Of a stretch of 40,865 nt of DNA, positions 1,246 to 25,503 are shown one piece after another. The translations under genes and the position numbers were made by a program. Origin of the DNA: a phage; the sequence record PQ785851.1; one strand, written 5' to 3'. A model generated the notes under the pieces. It worked only from the letters and a program-made list of their open reading frames with translations, was not told the DNA's origin and did not search any database. How positions within the stretch are numbered: the stretch's first letter is position 1; every line of letters starts with the position of its first letter.

Positions 1246-1896
1246 TTAGAATGTATCGATTTCTTGAGATTGTACTTCAACTTTTTCTTCTTGAACATTC
1301 TTTTGTGCAACTTGCTTAGGTTTTGCAGGATTAAAACCGTTAGTTGCATTAGCCTGAATCTCAGCTTTCCTCTCGATGATGTGAGGCTCGAGCACTAGCC
1401 AGCCTGCTGAATCAAGTGACTGTTTCGCTTCTTTGTAAACATCACGAAGGTCATCAAGCGTATTGCACTTAGCCAAATCCTTCTTAAATGAGTTAATTCC
1501 TTTAACTGCCAGCTGACCATCATCATCTGCTTGGCTTAATCCTAATGCCGCTGTAATTGCGTAACGGCGAGCGTATGTGAGTGATGAGCCATAACCTTGA
1601 GCATCTTGCTTGCTGATTGGGACGATTGTCAGGAAGCTAACCCATTCTCCAGACTCGGCATGGTATACGGTAGTCTCAACCTTAATACGAGAGCTAACAT
1701 CATCATCAACCATTGACTGAAACATTACCAATCCGCTATCCGCCAGGCCCGGCTCAACCGCCGCTAAAACATCATCTAAAGTGGCGTACTTGTTCTTTAG
1801 GTGCGAGTTCTGCTTTGATTTTTCAGCCTTGGCAAACTTTGATTTAGCCTCAAATAACGCCTTCAATACTTGCTTGTTTTGCTCTGAAGTCTTCAT
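1246..1896 (-). CDS. Erf-family ssDNA annealing protein
   Basis: 216 aa; ...SLTYARRYAITAALGL... resembles the conserved Erf core; sits between SSB and a nuclease. Confidence 0.65.
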   Translation of the reverse strand: MKTSEQNKQVLKALFEAKSKFAKAEKSKQNSHLKNKYATLDDVLAAVEPGLADSGLVMFQSMVDDDVSSRIKVETTVYHAESGEWVSFLTIVPISKQDAQGYGSSLTYARRYAITAALGLSQADDDGQLAVKGINSFKKDLAKCNTLDDLRDVYKEAKQSLDSAGWLVLEPHIIERKAEIQANATNGFNPAKPKQVAQKNVQEEKVEVQSQEIDTF

Positions 1897-6066: not shown

Positions 6067-9000
6067 TTAGTAGGTGCCAGTCAAACGTCCAATCTGAACA
6101 CGGAGCCTACCGTTGGCATCCGCGACAGAAATTGTCTGGTTCGTCTGCTTCATCTTACCTTCACCAGGTGTGAACCCGTTATTCTCGAATGTCCCAGCCT
6201 TGTTTAAACTCCAGCCCTGCGAGTTGGCAACGTAGTTGTTGGACTGAATCGAGTTTCCAATCTTCGCGTTAGTAATCGAACCATCCTGGATTACTGCGCT
6301 TTGAATGAATACCTGATTATTCTCAACCACGAAAGGCAATGACCACTGACCGGAACCTGAACTAATTCCGTTACTGATTGCGAACCTGTTCGCGTCGAAA
6401 ATAAACTGGCTGCGAACATTCCCACCAGAACCAACAAGCTCAAGACTCATACCAGCCCCGTAAGTTCTTCCTTCATACTTTAATCCAAGACTCACAGAAT
6501 ACTGAACCCCAGTCTGCTCAGCATTTACGAACGCATCAAGCTTCTGGTTTAATGCAGCCTCGTTCTCACCAAGCCTTGCTGATAATGCAGTGTCAGCGGT
6601 GGTCCTAGCTTGAGCTTCTTCCGCTAGCGCAGTATCAATCCTTGTTAACGAAGCAACAATCTCGTCATCAATCTGCGCTTTAAGCTGCGTAAGAGCCTCT
6701 ACACGAGCCTTTTCTTCATCGGCTATAAGATTCACTGCCTGAACAAATTCAGCCTTCCTCTTGCCGTTTTCCTTGGTCATTCTGCGAACGTCACTATCAT
6801 TCGCGAGTGCGTTCTCAATAATTGATTCAGCTTGCGCCTGTATAGCAGAATTCTTTTCTATAGCATTCTGCTGGAGATACTTGAACCCCTCAGAGTTCTC
6901 TATATCAACCTTTATTTCGCCAATGATAGATTCCACATCATCACTTGCCATTCCCCTCACAAAGTCAGTCCACGGAGAGACGTTGCCAATCTTGTCGATT
7001 AGTCTCGCCCTGTACCAGATGACCTTACCTGCCGGTAGGGTAGTGTGCCAATACTCGTAACTCGGGTAAGGAACTAGCGTTAACAAGCTGGCGTTCTCTG
7101 GCGTGTAAGTACCATCACCATTGTCAGCTACCTGCTGCAATTCAGTGTATGACGTATCAGCTGAGTTCTCAGGAAAGCCCCACTTAACCCTAATGCCAAA
7201 TACTTCATCATCTGAAGCTGTAATTACTGTAGGTGCTGACGGAGTTCCAATCTTACCTGTAAGGCTAGCTGAAACAATGTCAGACCATGAAGAAACGTTC
7301 TCGGTGTCAGAAACAGCCCTCACGCGAACCTGATAAATACCTGCATAGATACCTTCAATATCAACTTCTGTGCTAGCTGTTCTGGGTACGTTAATCCAGT
7401 TACCATTCTCTTTCCTCCACTGAACATTGTATGTTTTAGCGTATGGCGCTTTGTCCCACCCTATTACCATCGTCTCAACCGATAAACCCTGAACAACCTT
7501 GCTGTAGCTTGATACTGTTAAGTTCTCAGGTGGCGACAATCTGTCAGGTTCTACAATTGAAGTAGGGCGGTCTATAATGTTAACGCCGTAGTCAATCTCG
7601 TCATATTTGTTCGGGTCGTACTCAACAGCAGTAATTGTGTACTGGAACGAGTCCTGACCATCAGTATCTGCTTTTTGAATACCAGTCACAACATATTGCT
7701 GAAGTGCCAGATTGTCCTTGTCGATTGCGAAAACAGTATCTGGCTGAGCTACAAAACTGAACGCCGTGTTCAGGTTAATAGTTCTACCATCTTCAGATAC
7801 GCTTGCGATAGTTCTAGCCTCTGGGCTACCGTCTGGCTTGTTAAGAAGAATTCTGTCACCCGGCGCTGCGTCAACTTTAAACGGTGTAAAAACCTGTAGC
7901 CCCTGCACTGATTCAATGCGGCCGGAAAGGTTCAACTGATAGTTGCTCGACCATGCCGCATCATTAACTGCAATAACCTCGCCAATCATCGGAATCATGC
8001 CTTCCAACCCGGTAGTGAAGCTGATAGTTTCGCTTCTCAGGTTGGTTTTTAGGAGCCATCTGCCGCGTCTGTTTGCTTCACTTCTGCGAGTGCAGCCAAT
8101 TGCCGTAAGGTCGACTGGATTAAACCCGAACCTGCGAGTAGCCTCAAGCTCAAATACTGGCTCAACATCCTGCTGATAGTTGTTCTCTACATCATCAAAC
8201 TGTACGTTCGCAGTAGTGTAAAGACTCTTTTCGCTAGCGAATGTGCGGCTGAACAATCCATTAACAACGTTATCATTCGTGAAGATGTATGATGGATTGC
8301 GTGGCTTATCAACCACAATACCAATCTTTTCGCCGTCATAGAAAGTCAGGCCACGGAAGATTGAGCAGATGTCACGAATTAGCGTGTAAGCCTCAACTTT
8401 ATTCTGTACAACCATGTCGCACAGGTAGCGCGGCTCCATTCCACCCTTACCATCAGGAACCATCTGGTCGCAGAATTGCGCGGCTTCGTACAGGCCCCAC
8501 TTATCAATCTCTACACCCAACTCTCGCTGATCAAGACCGTAGCGGCGGTTTGTCACTAAGTCATACAGAACCCACGCTGGGTTGTTTGACCATGCCATTT
8601 TGAATAGGCCATTCCATGTCCCGTTGTAAGTTCTGGTTTCAGGGTCGTAGTTAGTTGGGACCTGAATCAGCTTCCATCGCTTCTTGATAGATATTGTCGG
8701 GATACCGTTAGGAAAAAGGTCAGAGCCAAACTCAACGTAAACCAGAGCTGTAAGCGGATAGCGGAATTTAGCGTCGATTACCTCCTGATAGGTTGTAATC
8801 TGCATCCCGTTAACCAATGTGCTACTCGTCGAATCTGGCGTAATCTTTCTGATGCGAACCAATGCGCTATCAAATTCAGCCGGAAGGTTCACGCGAATGC
8901 TGCGGTCGTAACCTGTAGTTGTCTTCCCGTTAGCAACTCCTCGAGTATATTCCTGATAAGCGCCACCATTAACAGAAAGATCAATCGCATACTCGCAGGT

Positions 9001-9462
9001 TGTTCCGTTCAGGTCTCCATTACTTTCTTGCTTAACCAGCCTAGGCCAATATAGCTTTACACGAATCGCTGATAGCTTAGTATTGTTAACCGCAATGATG
9101 TACGGGGTATCGTTCGTGATTTCTCTGGAGGCCTGAATCTCTGAGTTAGCACCATCAAGACCGGCGATATAGTCCTGATACTGCGTACCAGCACGGAACT
9201 CAGCGCGAACACCTTCATAGTTGTAGCTACCATCCTGATTTTGCACCGGAACGTCAGCAAGGTATAAATCCTTCAATGAGAAGTTAGGGTCCACCTCTCC
9301 GTCAGCAACCGCAAGTAATACCTTAACCTTGTTAAGTGAAATTAGGTTATCTTCCTGCTCCACTGGTTGATGCTGCTTCTGGCTACCGCCTTTGGCACCA
9401 TAAATCTTAATTTCTTCAGCCATATCACAAAGCCTCATGTTTGTTTTGATCATTTGTGCCAT
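6067..9462 (-). CDS. central tail fibre / host specificity protein (lambda J-like)
   Basis: 1131 aa; position after K-I-like genes; ...EATRRFGFNPVDLTAIGCTRRSEANRRGRWLL... resembles the J family. Confidence 0.8.
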   Translation of the reverse strand: MAQMIKTNMRLCDMAEEIKIYGAKGGSQKQHQPVEQEDNLISLNKVKVLLAVADGEVDPNFSLKDLYLADVPVQNQDGSYNYEGVRAEFRAGTQYQDYIAGLDGANSEIQASREITNDTPYIIAVNNTKLSAIRVKLYWPRLVKQESNGDLNGTTCEYAIDLSVNGGAYQEYTRGVANGKTTTGYDRSIRVNLPAEFDSALVRIRKITPDSTSSTLVNGMQITTYQEVIDAKFRYPLTALVYVEFGSDLFPNGIPTISIKKRWKLIQVPTNYDPETRTYNGTWNGLFKMAWSNNPAWVLYDLVTNRRYGLDQRELGVEIDKWGLYEAAQFCDQMVPDGKGGMEPRYLCDMVVQNKVEAYTLIRDICSIFRGLTFYDGEKIGIVVDKPRNPSYIFTNDNVVNGLFSRTFASEKSLYTTANVQFDDVENNYQQDVEPVFELEATRRFGFNPVDLTAIGCTRRSEANRRGRWLLKTNLRSETISFTTGLEGMIPMIGEVIAVNDAAWSSNYQLNLSGRIESVQGLQVFTPFKVDAAPGDRILLNKPDGSPEARTIASVSEDGRTINLNTAFSFVAQPDTVFAIDKDNLALQQYVVTGIQKADTDGQDSFQYTITAVEYDPNKYDEIDYGVNIIDRPTSIVEPDRLSPPENLTVSSYSKVVQGLSVETMVIGWDKAPYAKTYNVQWRKENGNWINVPRTASTEVDIEGIYAGIYQVRVRAVSDTENVSSWSDIVSASLTGKIGTPSAPTVITASDDEVFGIRVKWGFPENSADTSYTELQQVADNGDGTYTPENASLLTLVPYPSYEYWHTTLPAGKVIWYRARLIDKIGNVSPWTDFVRGMASDDVESIIGEIKVDIENSEGFKYLQQNAIEKNSAIQAQAESIIENALANDSDVRRMTKENGKRKAEFVQAVNLIADEEKARVEALTQLKAQIDDEIVASLTRIDTALAEEAQARTTADTALSARLGENEAALNQKLDAFVNAEQTGVQYSVSLGLKYEGRTYGAGMSLELVGSGGNVRSQFIFDANRFAISNGISSGSGQWSLPFVVENNQVFIQSAVIQDGSITNAKIGNSIQSNNYVANSQGWSLNKAGTFENNGFTPGEGKMKQTNQTISVADANGRLRVQIGRLTGTY

Positions 9463-9471
9463 TCTACAGTA

Positions 9472-9498
9472 AATAAAAAACCCGCGCCAGGCGGGTTC
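9472..9498 (-). terminator. rho-independent terminator after the HNH gene
   Basis: Minus strand reads AACCCGCCTGGCGCGGGTT followed by a T-run. Confidence 0.6.
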
Positions 9499-9503
9499 TG
9501 ATT

Positions 9504-9992
9504 TTACTTACCATGTCTATAGGTGTACTCACCATTTAAGTTCTCAGCGCTCTTTCTGGCGCACACTGCTTCAAACCAATCAACGAATAGCCCCAAGTGC
9601 TTTCTCTTTTTGTTTATTGATATCGTAGCCCACCACGTTCCAGTTAACTTATGAAATCCAACTCCCGCAACGCCGCTTGAGTTATCTGACCTTTTTGACC
9701 TGTTTTTTGAGTTTACCGATGAAGATACAATCCGTAAGTTACTAGCTGAGTTGTCAAGCCTGTTTCCATTTATATGGTCAATCTCCATGCCTTTAGGTGG
9801 CATCTTGAATCCATTTCTTAAGTACCAAAGAATCCTGTGAGATGAAGTCTGTTTGTCATTCAATTTAACATACCTATAGCCAGAATGATGAATAAATCCA
9901 GCCTCTGACTCTATTTTGGCCGAGTTGTTTCTCGCCTCCTTCCAGTATAGCTTTCCATCAATCTCGTAAAGGTAATTCTCGAATTTTTGCAT
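9504..9992 (-). CDS. HNH homing endonuclease with AP2-like DNA-binding domain
   Basis: 162 aa; HNH motif ...EIDHINGNRLDNSASNLRIV...; C-terminal ...SGVAGVGFHKLTGTWWATISINKKRKHLGLF... is AP2-like. Confidence 0.85.
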   Translation of the reverse strand: MQKFENYLYEIDGKLYWKEARNNSAKIESEAGFIHHSGYRYVKLNDKQTSSHRILWYLRNGFKMPPKGMEIDHINGNRLDNSASNLRIVSSSVNSKNRSKRSDNSSGVAGVGFHKLTGTWWATISINKKRKHLGLFVDWFEAVCARKSAENLNGEYTYRHGK

Positions 9993-10049
9993 TTTAAGTC
10001 ACCAAAAGAGTAAATCTTAAGGTGACTGTAATGCAGAATAATTTAATTA

Positions 10050-10622
10050 TCAAGAAATATCTTCACTATAACTGCCTGCACTAAATACAGACCCGCCAAC
10101 CGTCCGATAGCCGTAAGGAAGGCAAACTGGATAACCAGCCGCTACCGTGTTTACAGCAGAGCCGAATGCGTAAGAAGCTCTATTGCTTGTCTGGTTACTT
10201 TGGTCTTTTAATCCGGTAGCTTGAGGTGAAAGAAGCTGGGCAATGCCGCCAGCAGCCAGAGAAACACCAGCGCCAATCAAGTAAACCTGCCCAGTGAAGA
10301 TGCCAACTGTAATAAGCGCGGCACCTAGTATTGTCTGAAATAACCCACCAGACTTACGACCCTGCGGAACTGGAAGAATGCGTATCTCCTGAACGGCGCT
10401 AAAATCAGCAACTCTATGCTCATTAACATTTCTACCATCCACAAAAATTGCATACCTGGTGTTTTGCCCCACATGGCTATTCATGAACTCCTTGAAGGCT
10501 GGAATCTGATAACAAAGCGCCCTCATTGCCTCAGGCACACTGTTTACTGCCATTTGGTGAACCTTGCCAAACTTGCGACCTAGAGATAGGCCTAACTTAA
10601 TATCAATCAGTTTCTGGGTCAT
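10050..10622 (-). CDS. tail assembly protein (lambda I-like)
   Basis: 190 aa; position between K-like and J-like genes; hydrophobic Gly/Ala-rich C-terminal half. Confidence 0.6.
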   Translation of the reverse strand: MTQKLIDIKLGLSLGRKFGKVHQMAVNSVPEAMRALCYQIPAFKEFMNSHVGQNTRYAIFVDGRNVNEHRVADFSAVQEIRILPVPQGRKSGGLFQTILGAALITVGIFTGQVYLIGAGVSLAAGGIAQLLSPQATGLKDQSNQTSNRASYAFGSAVNTVAAGYPVCLPYGYRTVGGSVFSAGSYSEDIS

Positions 10623-11361
10623 AAATTACATCCTCTGGTAAATCCTTATGGCGAACAATGCGAACAGTTCGCTCGCGCCAGTAATCTGAATAAATATCTA
10701 CAGAACTCATTTTGCCATAAAGGTGATGTATGAATCTGTTGTTGCCAATGTAGATTCCTGCGTGGTTAGTAACCTCGCTTTGTACTTGCATCATGATCAT
10801 TGAGCCAATTGGAATATCTGAAGTTTTTACTAGCTCAAAACCTTCCTTAACCCAGTTGTCGTCATAGATATTTTCCCCGTACCTCTTCTCCCACCACGGG
10901 TAATTAACTCGGTAGTCGTTTAGTTTGACGCTGTATTTTTTGTGAAATCCCATGACTAACTCCCAGCAATCAAAGCTACCCAAACCCCACGGTCGACCAA
11001 TCAGTGGCATTGTTGATGGTTCAAGTATCCTCATGTCTCCTTCTGGAATACTGACGATAACATAAGGGATCTCGCACTCGTTGCAGCTACAGATATCCGC
11101 TGGGCTAGGTCTTGTTGTCGCACCATCACCAGTGTGGGAGTGAACTACGTAAACAATTGACTCGTTATCAACCAGATTAAATGCAATGTCGGCATACTCA
11201 TTTGAATCAAGTACAAACTCATTTTCAGGGTCTTTGCTGACATTGGTTATTCTATGATACTTCTGCGCACGACCCTTCTGCGTAACAACTCCACAGCACT
11301 CATGCGGGTAAACTTCCTTTGCGTGCTGGAAAATTTCCAGTTTAACCTTTGAACTTAACAT
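10603..11361 (-). CDS. tail assembly protein (lambda K-like, JAB/MPN plus NlpC/P60)
   Basis: Likely start is the internal ATG at 11361 preceded by AAGAGG; motifs HECCGVV, VHSHTGDG and GSFDCWELV. Confidence 0.7.
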   Translation of the reverse strand: MLSSKVKLEIFQHAKEVYPHECCGVVTQKGRAQKYHRITNVSKDPENEFVLDSNEYADIAFNLVDNESIVYVVHSHTGDGATTRPSPADICSCNECEIPYVIVSIPEGDMRILEPSTMPLIGRPWGLGSFDCWELVMGFHKKYSVKLNDYRVNYPWWEKRYGENIYDDNWVKEGFELVKTSDIPIGSMIMMQVQSEVTNHAGIYIGNNRFIHHLYGKMSSVDIYSDYWRERTVRIVRHKDLPEDVIYDPETD

Positions 11362-11374
11362 TAATAAATACCTC

Positions 11375-12142
11375 TTAGTTCTGATTGGCCTTTGCCTGAA
11401 GGCTTGCTGCCGCACAACCGCCGAAATCCAATTGATTGTTAGCGCCAAATCTAATTTTGCAACTGTTTACCGTTCCGGAGCAGAAGTCTAATGAGGGATC
11501 ACTAACTGGGTTATCATCTTTATCAAAGTATCGGTTTCCAGCATAGGCGCAACCATTGCCGCTACGATACCAGCCACGAGAAGCCCAATAGCAAACTGAC
11601 TGAACAAGTCGCGCTGGAATGTAAATTCCATCCATATCCATTGGGCTACTTAGCTCAAACGAGGCAGTCTTGTAGTCAACCTGCTTTGGTCGCTCAATGA
11701 AGTAAACGAATCGTCGATAGTCCCCATCAGCGATGCTTCCGTCTTCATTGATGTTATCGCGCGTAGTAATCCAGATAGTAACCTTAGCCTTAACTAGACC
11801 ATTGTATTCACGAATCAATGCGCTAATGCGCTGGTCTACGTTTGATACTGTCAGAGTAACCTTGTTTGCCTTGCCGTCAGAAGTCATATTGATACCCGAG
11901 ATACCAAATGGTCGGGGCCCATACTCTTCACCGCGGAAGGTAATTGTCTTCTCTGGCAGTGGCTCTCCGTTCATTTGGGCCAGCATGATTTCCTCTGGCG
12001 TGTATGAGATGTTTTCATTGTGGAAATTATAAACGAGACTACCAAATGCCGTCCCATCAACCTGGATTAGTGTCACAATCTCGCCAGGGAAAAGGCTTTG
12101 CAACTGATTTTCAAACTTTGGACTTAACATGATTTTCTCCAA
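11375..12142 (-). CDS. minor tail protein (lambda L-like)
   Basis: 255 aa; Cys-rich C-terminus (CYW..C..C, C..C); position between M-like and K-like genes. Confidence 0.7.
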   Translation of the reverse strand: MEKIMLSPKFENQLQSLFPGEIVTLIQVDGTAFGSLVYNFHNENISYTPEEIMLAQMNGEPLPEKTITFRGEEYGPRPFGISGINMTSDGKANKVTLTVSNVDQRISALIREYNGLVKAKVTIWITTRDNINEDGSIADGDYRRFVYFIERPKQVDYKTASFELSSPMDMDGIYIPARLVQSVCYWASRGWYRSGNGCAYAGNRYFDKDDNPVSDPSLDFCSGTVNSCKIRFGANNQLDFGGCAAASLQAKANQN

Positions 12143-12166
12143 TAAAAAAAGCCCCTAATGGGGCTT
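12143..12166 (-). terminator. intrinsic terminator / attenuator between M-like and L-like genes
   Basis: Hairpin AGCCCC-taat-GGGGCT followed by TTTTTTT on the minus strand, then RBS GGAG. Confidence 0.45.
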
Positions 12167-12169
12167 AGT

Positions 12170-12520
12170 TTAACGCATTGAGCTAAAGACTTCCACGAAT
12201 TGCATGCTTACAGTCTGAACTTCGCTACTTAATGGCGTTACACTGATGCTATCTTGCTGAATAACAAACAGCTTTAGTTCACCCTGCGGCGTAGTCCACG
12301 CGAAAGGTTTTACGATGTGATCAAAGCAGAAGCTCATTACTGCCTCCCACTCACGACCAACGTAGCTAACCGTGTATGTCCTCTTGTTCGTCCTGTAACC
12401 ACCAGTGCCACGCTGTTGGAAGCCGTTTCCAAATGAAACAATCATAACGTTATTGGAGTTGGTAAACGAAGAGCCACCATTAAGAACATTTAAGCACCAA
12501 TTAAAAGTTTGCAATGCCAT
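12170..12520 (-). CDS. minor tail protein (lambda M-like)
   Basis: 116 aa; immediately distal to the tape measure gene. Confidence 0.6.
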   Translation of the reverse strand: MALQTFNWCLNVLNGGSSFTNSNNVMIVSFGNGFQQRGTGGYRTNKRTYTVSYVGREWEAVMSFCFDHIVKPFAWTTPQGELKLFVIQQDSISVTPLSSEVQTVSMQFVEVFSSMR

Positions 12521-12551
12521 TTAAAATCCTTAGGGGCCGAAGCCCCACTAA

Positions 12552-15524
12552 TTAGTTGTAACCGCGCAAGAATGCATACGCCCTGCCGCCCTGCTGGAAT
12601 GACTTGCTGATTTCCTCAGCCACGATGACCTTGACTCCAGATTCTATCGCCTTAGCATCATTACTGCTACTAACTCCAGAGTTTACGTTAACCGTCACTC
12701 CACCAACACTGACATTCGTACCGCCGACAACTCCACCATTAGCATATCCAGATGGCCCACCAACAGCGCCGCCATTAGCATATCCGCGCATCAGCTTGTA
12801 CAGATTTTTAACACCAATCCTGTTGGTTGCTTCTTTGGTGAATACAAACTCACCTTTGTGAACAGTACCGGCAGGTTGATACTTCCCGCCATCACCAGTA
12901 TAGCCGCCGCCAGCAAAACCAAGCGCACTACCAATTGAGCCAATCGCGCCACCAGTGCCGCCGAAGCTACTTAAACTTGACTCAATCGCCTTAACAATAA
13001 GAAGCTGAGTTGCAATTCTTGCAATCTGCTTGAGTATGTTTACAGTAAACTCCCTGAAGTTTGTTTCTCCAGTGGTTACAAGGTCAGTAATCTGGTCAGT
13101 AATGCCTTCAAATACCTTAGTGGTTAAACTTCCGGCAATTGAGAAAGCATCTGTCGCGCTCTCTGCCCAATTTGCGAAGGATGACTGCACACCAGCAAGC
13201 CAGTTTTCACGTAGCGCATCCTCTTGAGCGTAGAAGTTACGCCTTGCTTCGAGTAAAGCCTGAAAATCAGTATCATCAACAGACCCACCTTTGTTTATCT
13301 GATTGGATTGAAGTGCCTGAAGCTCTTTTGCTCTTTGCTTCTCCCTGTCAGATAAATTAGCAGCAAGTGAAACATTACTTGCTTCATTCTTAATCTGCAC
13401 AGTCTTCTTGAGGTTGTCATCAAGTAACTTGTTTGACCTCTCCTGAAGCACAATCTGGTCACCAAGCTCAGCATTCTGTTTAGCTTGTTCAAGAATGATA
13501 TTCTTCTGCGCAAGTAGCTTGGACTGTGATTTTGTAAGCGTACCATCCGCTTTCCTTTGCTCAAGTATTGCAAACTTAGCTTCTTCCTGGAATAGCTGCT
13601 TGCGTTCGTTGCTTATTACATCATTTATCGTCCTGTGCTCTTGTAAAACCTTCAGCTGAGCCTGAAGAGCAAGAACGCCAGATTCATAAGATAAGGTTAA
13701 ATCCATTTCTTCTTTTACTGCCTTGTTCCTCTCACTCCTCGCTTTCTTTATCCCATCAAGCTCATCAGCTAGCGCCTTTCTTCTTGCTGCAAATTCCTTA
13801 TCTGTTGATGGTTTGTTGCCAGTTAGGTTGATATCGCTGTTTTCCTTAACATATCCCATCTCTCCCTTTCTGATCCTAGCATCTCGCTCAGCGATGCTTT
13901 TTGCTAACTCCTCGTTTTGCTTCTTGGATGCATCGACAACCTTTTGCTGCTCAGCAATTATGCCGTTACCTACATCACCAAGCCCCGGGATTGACTGAAG
14001 CGTCTTGGTTGCAGAGATAGCAAATTCACCAAGAAGAATGTCGCCTGAGTTTATAAACGACCTTATCTGCTCAATCGTACCAGCAACAACGTCAGTTATT
14101 AAGTTAAGAGCACCAAGTGTGCGCTTGCCGATGCTATCCCAAATTTCGATTACAAACTTCCTGAAGCTATTCCATGCACTTTCAAGGGGGTTAAGGCTTA
14201 GCGCAACATCTTCCAGCCTGTTCTCCATAACGTTAGCGAATAGCTCAGTAGCTGCCGTTACAGCCTCTGTCTCTCCTGCTGTCTTCCTCAAGTTCTCTAT
14301 GTGTTTTAACTGTCCGGACTGAAGGAAGTTAAACTGCTTATCGAGTGCAATCAGACCTTGAATGGGGTCCTTTGTAATCTGATCAAAGTACCCAAGAATA
14401 GTTTTCGAGTCAGTTGATGTTACAGCTGCCCATTGCGCGGTTGCCTTAGTTATCTTGTCTATCTGTGTAAGAGTTAGATTTCCGTTTGCTACAAGGCTAT
14501 TTGCTATCTCCTGAATAAGTCCGCGCGTGGCTAGTGTTGATCTCTCAATTACATCAACAACCTGATTTATCTGCGCTGTAGACGTGATAGTTGAGTTTCC
14601 AACCAGCGTTATCGTTGATGCCAGTCCGCGAGTGTTCTTGTCAGCCTGATAAGCCGCAACACCGAGAGCGCCAAGAGCCAAGCCCAAAGTCCCAACAACT
14701 GCTGTTAATGGGTTGATAGCTGCTAATGCAAACCTTGCCGTGTTAGCAATACCACCAAAGCTATCCTTAATCTGCCCACCCTGCTGAATTGCAATGAGCC
14801 AGATGGGGATGCCACCAGCAAGAGAGGTTCCGATATCTGTAATCTGAGCTGGTAGCTGTCGGATTGCTTGCTTGTACTGCCCGGCGCTTAAACCTGACTT
14901 AACAAAAGCGGAGCTTTGCTTCTGCAATTGAACAGCAGATGCCTCAGCGGACTTACTGATCCTGTCTATAATCGGCGCTGCCTGGTCACTAACGCCTAGC
15001 TGAGCAGCCTTAAGTTGAAGAAGTTCAGTCCTTGTTAAACTTGCAGCGTTAGCCTCGTTCTCAAGATATTGAATGAACTTCTGCGCCGATGCTGCTGCCT
15101 TTTCTTTATCTATTGATGCCTGGAGCGCGGCCCTTCCTTCTTCGCTAAGAGCAGCCTTAGACCTGTTGAGCTTATTGATTTGAGTTTCAATAACAGATCC
15201 AAGCCTAAAGAATTCTTCGTCAGGAACGATTCCTGCTGCAAATGCCTTATCTAATTCAGTTGCCGCTTTCTGCAAATTCTGGAATTTAGCGGCGGTTGGG
15301 TCTATGGCTTGCTGAAGTGATGCGAAAGATTTGCGTTGCTCCTCAAGCTGCCTTGCGGTATCTCTAGCTTGAGTTTTGGCGACAAGCTCAGCATTAACGA
15401 ACTCACTAATCCCAGAGGCTGCTTGTTGGTTTGCCTGCCTGAACTTTTGTAGGGATTGTGTACCCCTGTCTACTTGCGAGACGTCGACCGCTAGCGTGAT
15501 GCCAGCAATTTCATTAGTTGCCAT
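12552..15524 (-). CDS. tail tape measure protein
   Basis: About 990 aa; long coiled-coil region, Gly-rich hydrophobic segments; likely start ATG at 15524 with RBS GGAGACAAT (track ORF is open to 15575). Confidence 0.85.
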
Positions 15525-15561
15525 ATTGTCTCCATAATAAAAAAGCCACCCCGAAGGATGG

Positions 15562-15813
15562 CTATCGCTTAGCATTCATCATATCTAAAGCTTTCGCTTC
15601 AAGTATTCTGATATCGTTAAGTACCATTTCGTCATCATCTATTTTATAGACTTTGAACAAGAATGGAAGGCAATTATAGTCAAGGCCAGTAGCGCCTGAT
15701 GCGCCAACTCTCCATTGTGTGGACATTGCACAGTATACGTCCCAGCTTTGCATCATTGTTTCATCAAAGTGCAACTCTTCAGGCTCCTCACCTTCATAGT
15801 CGGAACGTTTCAT
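15562..15813 (-). CDS. tail assembly chaperone, frameshift-extension (T-like) portion
   Basis: ORF is in the -1 frame relative to 15876..16190; the frame is open from the slippery site A_AAA_AAC (15877-15883) to this ORF. Confidence 0.5.
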
Positions 15814-24978: not shown

Positions 24979-25503
24979 TTACAGCTTACTAATCACAGAC
25001 TCCAGCGCTTCCTTCATCGTACCAACGTCGTTAGCTGAAGAGTTATTGCTTATAGTAATCTCCTGCGGCTTATCGATGCCAAGTTCTTTGGAAATCATGC
25101 CAGGGTTAACAATGCCAGACGCTGCCAGCTGATACTTCTGCTCGCGAATCACGGAATCAATGAATGCAATTACCTCGTCATAACCAGCCGACTTCCTCCA
25201 TTTCTCTATTGCGCTATGGGTAACACCGCAGTAAAGGCAGAATCCTGTTAGTGTGAAGACTCGTGGCTTGTGCACCAGATTCTCGGTTACGACACCCTGG
25301 AAGCTGGCTGTCTCAATTGCCTTGATTGCCTGGCTCTCAGCCCATGAGAAGTATTTCACGGCCAGGTCGAATAGCTGCTCTGGGGTCATTATTCGGTTTT
25401 TGGACAGAGTTGTAATGTCAGAATACTTTTTGTTGTACATGGCTTTGAAGTTGCCAGAGCGAATCTTTTCTTGCGCCTGGCTGGTGAAGTTTTCGTCTTT
25501 CAT
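24979..25503 (-). CDS. terminase small subunit
   Basis: 174 aa immediately upstream of the large terminase gene. Confidence 0.55.
   Translation of the reverse strand: MKDENFTSQAQEKIRSGNFKAMYNKKYSDITTLSKNRIMTPEQLFDLAVKYFSWAESQAIKAIETASFQGVVTENLVHKPRVFTLTGFCLYCGVTHSAIEKWRKSAGYDEVIAFIDSVIREQKYQLAASGIVNPGMISKELGIDKPQEITISNNSSANDVGTMKEALESVISKL

Follow-up and report, generated by a model that had tools for sequence, protein, structure and literature searches.

I-HmuI (PDB 1U3E), an HNH nicking endonuclease encoded in an intron of Bacillus phage SPO1, has a C-terminal DNA-binding part that is helical and of the helix-turn-helix kind. Phages, cyanobacteria and protists have HNH-AP2 proteins, a recognised homing endonuclease family that is regarded as the source of the AP2/ERF domains of plants (PMC10448857, citing original work). 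The 'IPA-HNH' proteins of ICP1, described in the same paper, escape the Pfam HNH_3 profile. The T4 genes I-TevI, I-TevII, I-TevIII and segB and the Aeh1 gene mobE have a hairpin that sequesters the ribosome-binding site and holds a promoter within it (PMC2988022), and I-HmuI-like HNH genes of Skunavirus show a site-linked phylogeny and marker exclusion (PMC12724721).

Here we describe a gene in the tail operon of a T1-like phage, found in a stretch of 40,865 nucleotides (sequence record PQ785851.1; "the window" throughout), that is very probably a free-standing HNH-AP2 homing endonuclease gene (HEG) with a predicted nuclease activity. Whereas I-HmuI is encoded in an intron, the window protein comes from a free-standing gene and carries an AP2 fold, and whereas the ICP1 proteins escape HNH_3, the window protein matches it clearly and misses the Pfam AP2 profile. 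The locus resembles the T4-type free-standing HEGs (seg, mob) in apparent intronless homing, in co-conversion of the flanks, and in a hairpin, here predicted from the sequence, that would hide the ribosome-binding site and hold a promoter inside. It is unlike them in that the putative promoter is sigma70-like and not T4 late, and in that the co-conversion tracts are very short. The original prediction of an HNH-AP2 homing endonuclease at this place is correct, yet not new, because an identical protein is already annotated in GenBank and the family is recognised; conceptually, the locus holds nothing beyond the homing endonucleases of T4, SPO1, ICP1 and Skunavirus. What is added here is a base-level account of one natural transfer, a correction of the terminator's origin, and a predicted promoter/hairpin switch.

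Genome context

The window makes up most of a T1-like siphophage genome (Drexlerviridae, Braunvirinae-like), and the best overall relatives of this phage are the Escherichia phages CY1, IME542, TR1 and Rao1, with 88-91% identity over parts of the genome. The HEG lies in a lambda-like tail operon encoded on the minus strand:

12552..15575, minus strand, tape measure protein
12170..12520, minus strand, M
11375..12142, minus strand, L
10603..11448, minus strand, K
10050..10622, minus strand, tail assembly protein I homologue (phrog_32, E=2.5e-65), flanking the HEG; its last ~75 bp are of donor type and the rest matches TR1 and IME542 with full identity
9504..9992, minus strand, homing endonuclease ORF, 162 aa plus stop, ATG start (ORF list, Pfam HNH_3, tblastn, pN/pS)
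6067..9462, minus strand, central tail fibre J homologue (phrog_31, E=0), flanking the HEG, mosaic

The ORF list and the two PHROG matches of its neighbours agree with the length of 162 aa and the position between an I-like and a J-like gene that had been claimed for the ORF.

Endonuclease domains

Two regions were recognised in the protein:

9693..9992, minus strand, residues 1-100, I-HmuI-like N-terminal beta-hairpin region and beta-beta-alpha-metal (HNH) core
9534..9680, minus strand, residues ~105-153, AP2/ERF-fold DNA-binding domain (strands 111-114, 119-126 and 129-136; helix 139-153)

The claimed HNH domain is backed by a match of residues 52-95 to Pfam HNH_3 (PF13392) at 51 bits, against a gathering cut-off of 24.8 (E=1.1e-13), and by a match to PHROG 99 (HNH endonuclease) at E=8e-55. 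A sequence search of solved structures found only I-HmuI (1U3E). Homologues were collected (264) and 70 of them aligned; the resulting profile matches I-HmuI at E=1e-8, and the catalytic motif EIDHINGNRLDNSASNLRIVSSSVNSKN aligns residue for residue with the I-HmuI motif VVDHKDGNKDNNLSTNLRWVTQKINVEN. Eight residues are invariant in the 70 aligned homologues (R53, D72, H73, N81, N85, R87, N94 and N97), and the catalytic Asp-His general base pair and the metal-binding Asn residues are all present (D72, H73, N85, N94, N97). A single-sequence AlphaFold model (pLDDT 40) was set aside and the structure was modelled from the 70-sequence alignment; this model has the beta-beta-alpha-metal fold, preceded by an N-terminal beta region of the I-HmuI type.

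In the C-terminal part, the model has a three-stranded antiparallel sheet packed on one helix, which can be superposed on solved AP2 domains. The C-terminal part of the 70-homologue profile matches AP2 domains of two plant proteins, WRI1 (E=0.002) and TEM1 (E=0.017), and these two are the sole non-HNH profile matches below E=0.1. Pfam AP2 (PF00847) gave no match to the window protein at E<=1, and was found in five homologues with 40-51% identity. The proposed domain search for HNH and AP2 profiles thus succeeded directly for HNH_3 and failed for PF00847 on the query itself, with AP2 recovered by profile and fold. The HNH-AP2 call is right, its AP2 part standing on fold and profile evidence because Pfam AP2 misses the query, and the AP2 assignment of the C-terminal domain is correct. 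Within the window, tblastn with the endonuclease matched just its own gene, and Pfam profiles picked out no additional nuclease among ten other small ORFs.

Distribution among relatives

A tblastn search of 50,697 phage records found close homologues (at least 80% identity) in seven, which represent five genomes:

Escherichia phage vB_EcoS-IME253, APU93258.1, 100% amino acid identity
Escherichia phage ZL19, UMO77952.1, 100% amino acid identity
Escherichia phage phiA2-1, WRH07481.1, 100% amino acid identity
Escherichia phage Rao1, XGX96887.1, 99.4% amino acid identity
Shigella phage Sd1 gp29, ATE86095.1, 88.9% amino acid identity

All five proteins are labelled in GenBank, either as homing endonuclease or as HNH endonuclease. 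Every one of the five carriers (IME253, ZL19, phiA2-1, Rao1 and Sd1) has the gene between I and J, although the last of them is a member of another subfamily, Rogunavirinae; all other tblastn matches are below 60% identity and at other sites. Metagenome assemblies contain more distant orthologues (75% identity), likewise placed between a Lambda_tail_I gene and J, so that Sd1 and the metagenome contigs share the I-J site at 75-89% identity. A scan of IMG/VR for additional carriers returned just IME253 and Sd1 again. The window differs from the known carriers in having the HEG in another backbone, with gene I and the genes upstream identical to those of the HEG-less Christensenvirus phages TR1 and IME542.

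A 501-bp query spanning the empty I-J junction of TR1 was matched over at least 80% of its length at a single place in 118 records. Subtracting the seven carriers leaves about 111 apparently uninterrupted junctions; every non-carrier among the matches listed aligns as one piece, and the carriers match as two pieces parted by the insert. Had relatives all carried the gene at this site with divergence like that of its flanks, recent mobility would have been hard to argue, but the gene is sporadic at a fixed site (seven carrier records against more than 100 junctions without insert), which favours mobility. On these alignments, the gene is a site-specific HEG lineage scattered over several backbones.

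Small phage HNH proteins of the HK97 gp74 type work with terminase, and a packaging-associated role of this kind, in which the protein would process DNA ends, was weighed on that precedent. The HEG is a tail-operon gene at a great distance from the small terminase gene (24979..25503) and the terminase/portal genes; its product belongs to the HNH_3/I-HmuI family and not to the terminase-linked HNH proteins, and carries an AP2 domain; and most relatives do without the gene and still package normally. A terminase-associated role was ruled out on these three grounds of position, family and dispensability, and we give it next to no probability.

Insertion site and terminator

Alignments place the insert and the neighbouring terminator as follows:

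9496..10041, no strand assigned, 546-bp segment missing from HEG-less alleles (pairwise and multiple alignments with TR1, IME542, BEK2 and JeanPiccard)
9477..9499, minus strand, I-J intrinsic terminator hairpin followed by a T-run (terminator scan and alignments), common to HEG-less alleles

The boundaries of the insert are ambiguous by a few bases; it spans the last two codons and stop of I through to the endonuclease stop codon. The terminator had been taken to be the HEG's own. This does not hold, as the same hairpin follows the I stop in the HEG-less phages TR1, IME542, BEK2 and JeanPiccard at the same distance upstream of the J start, and some GenBank records of HEG-less relatives annotate a terminator between I and J. 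By alignment, the terminator at 9477..9499 is a resident element of the I-J intergenic region and the insert lies upstream of it. In metagenome contig L012, the bases that follow the endonuclease stop (TAAATATCAT...) are those that follow the I stop in HEG-less alleles, and therefore the insert sits at the very end of gene I. Read this way, gene I owes its present last two codons and its stop to the insert, and the HEG ORF ends on the former I stop and would use the resident terminator.

From the stop of I to the start of J, the three aligned HEG-less phages (TR1, BEK2 and JeanPiccard) are identical, and their flanking genes are ~80-97% identical to each other and to the window. Between the terminator stem and the J start, Sd1 and contigs L010 and L011 are identical to the HEG-less alleles, and L012 is one base off, in the T-run. 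Because carriers, which do not destroy themselves, keep the terminator-to-J sequence, the target must span the insertion point. We infer a target made up of the end of gene I, the I stop codon, the spacer and the terminator.

The Braunvirinae carrier alleles, including the window, have three substitutions relative to HEG-less alleles, at 9486 and 9488 in the terminator loop and at 9469 just before the J start; Sd1, L010, L011 and L012 keep the HEG-less bases. These substitutions could be hitch-hiking or could confer partial target immunity.

The last 75 bp of I hold 21 differences, almost all of them synonymous. Recoding of the end of I as a form of target immunity was considered and rejected, the ~72% identity there being not clearly below the divergence of the lineages elsewhere in I.

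Selection on the endonuclease

Comparison of the window gene with its Sd1 orthologue gave pN 0.072 and pS 0.714, the latter saturated, for a pN/pS of ~0.1, and the copies in L011 and L012 have 10% synonymous differences and zero non-synonymous ones. By these measures the HEG is under strong purifying selection. The low pN/pS, together with the invariance of the catalytic residues, argues for a functional enzyme. The copy in Rao1, otherwise identical, has R87W (NLRIV to NLWIV, window position 9734) at a residue where the 70 homologues do not vary; this substitution may be inactivating or may mark early decay in Rao1.

Transfer footprints

Mismatch maps delimit a donor-type block around the insert in the window, with these contrasts between the window and a carrier or a HEG-less relative:

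9413..10127, no strand assigned, maximal donor-type block, 715 bp, 0/715 mismatches to the carrier ZL19
9469..10116, no strand assigned, minimal donor-type block
10128..10622, rest of gene I, 88/495 mismatches to ZL19 (~82% identity)
10042..10116, 21/75 mismatches to the HEG-less TR1
10117..12150, 4/2034 mismatches to TR1, and IME542 likewise
9254..9468, 0/215 mismatches to TR1

The contrasts between block and outside give p=5e-37 and p=2e-28 (Fisher tests). The crossovers are placed between 10117 and 10127 on the I side (~10 bp) and between 9413 and 9468 on the J side (~55 bp), and the co-conversion tracts beside the insert measure 75-86 bp on the I side and 27-83 bp on the J side. In these maps the window reads as a TR1/IME542-type backbone with a ZL19/IME253-type block, and such a block is what homing with short co-conversion tracts is expected to produce. 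The short tracts on both sides point to a cut near the insertion site. A second footprint was found in metagenome contigs L011 and L012 (segments L011:1283-2968 and L012:1-1686), where the gene and its leader are 98% identical in nucleotide sequence and the I and J flanks 73-78%; by the same reasoning, the cassette has passed between backbones a second time, independently. The direction of the transfer is a matter of inference: the window lineage may have gained the HEG, or recombination with a HEG-less phage may have removed it from the TR1 lineage. Whichever the direction, the mismatch pattern indicates a recent transfer in which the HEG travelled together with the sequence right beside it.

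Drexlerviridae genomes are mosaic everywhere, and general recombination could in principle make a similar block. The HEG would then be a passive passenger, its patchiness and the identical block both arising from ordinary homologous recombination, with no drive and with an enzyme that is perhaps inactive now. Breakpoints unrelated to the HEG do occur throughout the region (near 7400, 7800, 8200, 9253 and 12200 in the identity profile), and the R87W change hints at decay in some lineages. The donor-type block is nevertheless tight around the insert, with less than 90 bp on each side, and what lies outside it is, on either side, 100% identical to a HEG-less phage; the same pattern is seen independently in L011/L012; and the catalytic residues have stayed invariant at a pN/pS of ~0.1 with pS saturated. 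We therefore regard a passenger origin as improbable.

Homing by an HNH-AP2 endonuclease is the reading that we prefer, and it would proceed as follows. During mixed infection with a HEG-less T1-like relative, the enzyme would recognise the conserved I-J junction and, given the predicted nuclease activity, nick or cut there. The break would be repaired by recombination with the carrier genome as template, and an annealing protein encoded in the window would be available for this step:

1246..1896, minus strand, ERF-family single-strand annealing protein (Pfam ERF, E=5e-28)

Such a protein could plausibly serve as the phage's own helper in recombinational repair during homing. Repair would copy the 546-bp cassette and short flanks into the recipient, and carrier genomes would be immune because the insert splits the target.

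Predicted leader hairpin and promoter

Two elements were predicted upstream of the endonuclease ORF:

9985..10035, minus strand, RNA stem-loop in the 5' leader (RNA fold; Shine-Dalgarno sequence and AUG paired)
10025..10053, minus strand, sigma70-like promoter (consensus scan; -35 TTGATA at 10053..10048, 17-nt spacer, -10 TACAGT at 10030..10025)

The inner stem pairs AGUCACC (10027..10021) with GGUGACU (10003..9997), in which the Shine-Dalgarno motif GGUGA lies; the start codon AUG is paired in the outer stem. Folding of the 57-bp leader that separates I from the ORF gives -23.4 kcal/mol (z=-6.1), with 0/200 shuffles as stable, and the Sd1 leader folds with z=-7.2. Across five leaders, drawn from four diverged HEG types, both stem arms are invariant and the loop varies in sequence and length; because the arms are invariant, these sequences hold no covariation to support the pairing.

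The -35 hexamer shares bases with the TGA that forms the new I stop, as the -10 hexamer does with the 5' arm of the hairpin. The hexamers and the 16-17 nt spacing are kept in the four HEG types though the spacer sequence differs:

Window and Sd1, -35 TTGATA, 17 nt, -10 TACAGT
L010, -35 TTGATT, 16 nt, -10 TATAGT
L011 and L012, -35 TTGACT, 17 nt, -10 TATAGT

The window promoter agrees with the consensus at 9/12 positions, and such matches are common by chance (5 found vs 2.9 expected); its function is a prediction. A transcript from this putative promoter would lack the 5' arm of the hairpin, and the ribosome-binding site would therefore be exposed. In read-through transcripts of the tail operon, the hairpin would hide both the ribosome-binding site and the AUG, and the enzyme would be translated from its own sigma70-type transcript alone. 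In its expression, the HEG thus seems to depend on no outside signal.

An operator of the I-TevI kind, with the empty junction resembling the leader, was sought and rejected, as alignments of the two score 7-8 against a shuffle mean of 8.1. This result also bears on the idea that the HEG serves the phage, either by marker exclusion, cutting the tail operon of co-infecting HEG-less relatives, or through binding of the AP2 domain at the I-J terminator that tunes expression of J. The strong purifying selection across lineages, at saturated pS, would fit a benefit of this kind, as would a site that adjoins the essential J gene; the stem of the terminator is rich in G and C, the kind of target that AP2 domains are said to favour (PMC10448857); and there is precedent in the marker exclusion reported for I-HmuI-like HNH genes of Skunavirus (PMC12724721) and in HEGs at boundaries of genetic exchange (PMC10448857). 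The HEG is, however, absent in the great majority of close relatives and so is dispensable, the junction has no operator-like similarity to the leader, and a benefit is in any case compatible with homing, since marker exclusion follows from the same cleavage. As an explanation in its own right, phage benefit seems to us very improbable.

Returning to homing, the arrangement of the cassette allows a further, tentative reading, which we think possible but doubtful. The cassette could be a minimal self-contained mobile unit, in which the -35 hexamer is fused to the new I stop, the ORF ends on the old I stop and uses the resident terminator, the promoter within the hairpin acts as a switch, and the AP2 domain recognises the conserved I-J terminator region. 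If this is true, the cassette would reproduce the late-promoter design of T4 in a phage that relies on host RNA polymerase, and the enzyme would be both a tool and a natural driver for the exchange of modules beside the host-range gene J across Drexlerviridae subfamilies.

Recombination beside the tail fibre gene

The suggestion that the insert marks a recombination hotspot next to the host-range determinant has only loose support: J is indeed mosaic, but the HEG-associated tract reaches at most 50 bp into it (9413..9462) and lies 2 kb or more from its divergent C-terminal part. The idea is plausible but unsupported, with no J breakpoint that can be tied to the HEG and similar breakpoints found elsewhere in the genome. 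The rest of the original prediction, a free-standing mobile HNH-AP2 insertion in the tail operon, agrees with the domains, the distribution and the divergence of the gene relative to its flanks.

The comparison of the window with TR1/IME542 on one side and ZL19/IME253 on the other amounts to a natural experiment with an unusually clean footprint. Mapping of the target should be easy, the predicted region being the conserved I stop, terminator and J start. The authors of the BASEL collection warn of gene conversion driven by homing endonucleases in coliphage genomes (PMC8594841), and trees or host-range inferences drawn from the I-J region of T1-like phages will be confounded by gene conversion.

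J itself is a patchwork. Positions 7400-7800 are 99.5-100% identical to TR1/IME542, positions 7800-8200 are 97-100% identical to the IME253 group, and positions 8200-9250 are ~84-94% identical to all Braunvirinae phages compared and 72-79% to Sd1. The C-terminal third (6067..7400) has just 60-80% identity to every phage compared, and so the receptor-binding end looks new relative to the collection.

Other features of the tail operon

A sharp identity boundary falls between L and M, at about 12150..12270, and beyond ~12200, in M and the tape measure gene, the window has 65-70% identity to all phages compared. An optional HNH endonuclease gene of ~157 aa lies between the tape measure gene and M in IME253, phiA2-1, IME542, TR1 and JeanPiccard (loci L001, L002, L006, L007 and L009, about 7177..8798); the window is without it, and the corresponding gap (12521..12551) is 31 bp. 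An optional Rha-family gene on the opposite strand lies between L and K in IME253, phiA2-1, ZL19, Rao1 and contigs L010 and L013 (loci L001, L004-L006, L010 and L013). The window is without this gene as well, and L and K overlap at the corresponding site (11375..11448). Several records named 'Campylobacter phage A110b/A118/A123...' (H11, H64, H65 and others; MG065688.1 and related records) are T1-like and ~90% identical to E. coli phages in the tail operon, and their host label looks doubtful.
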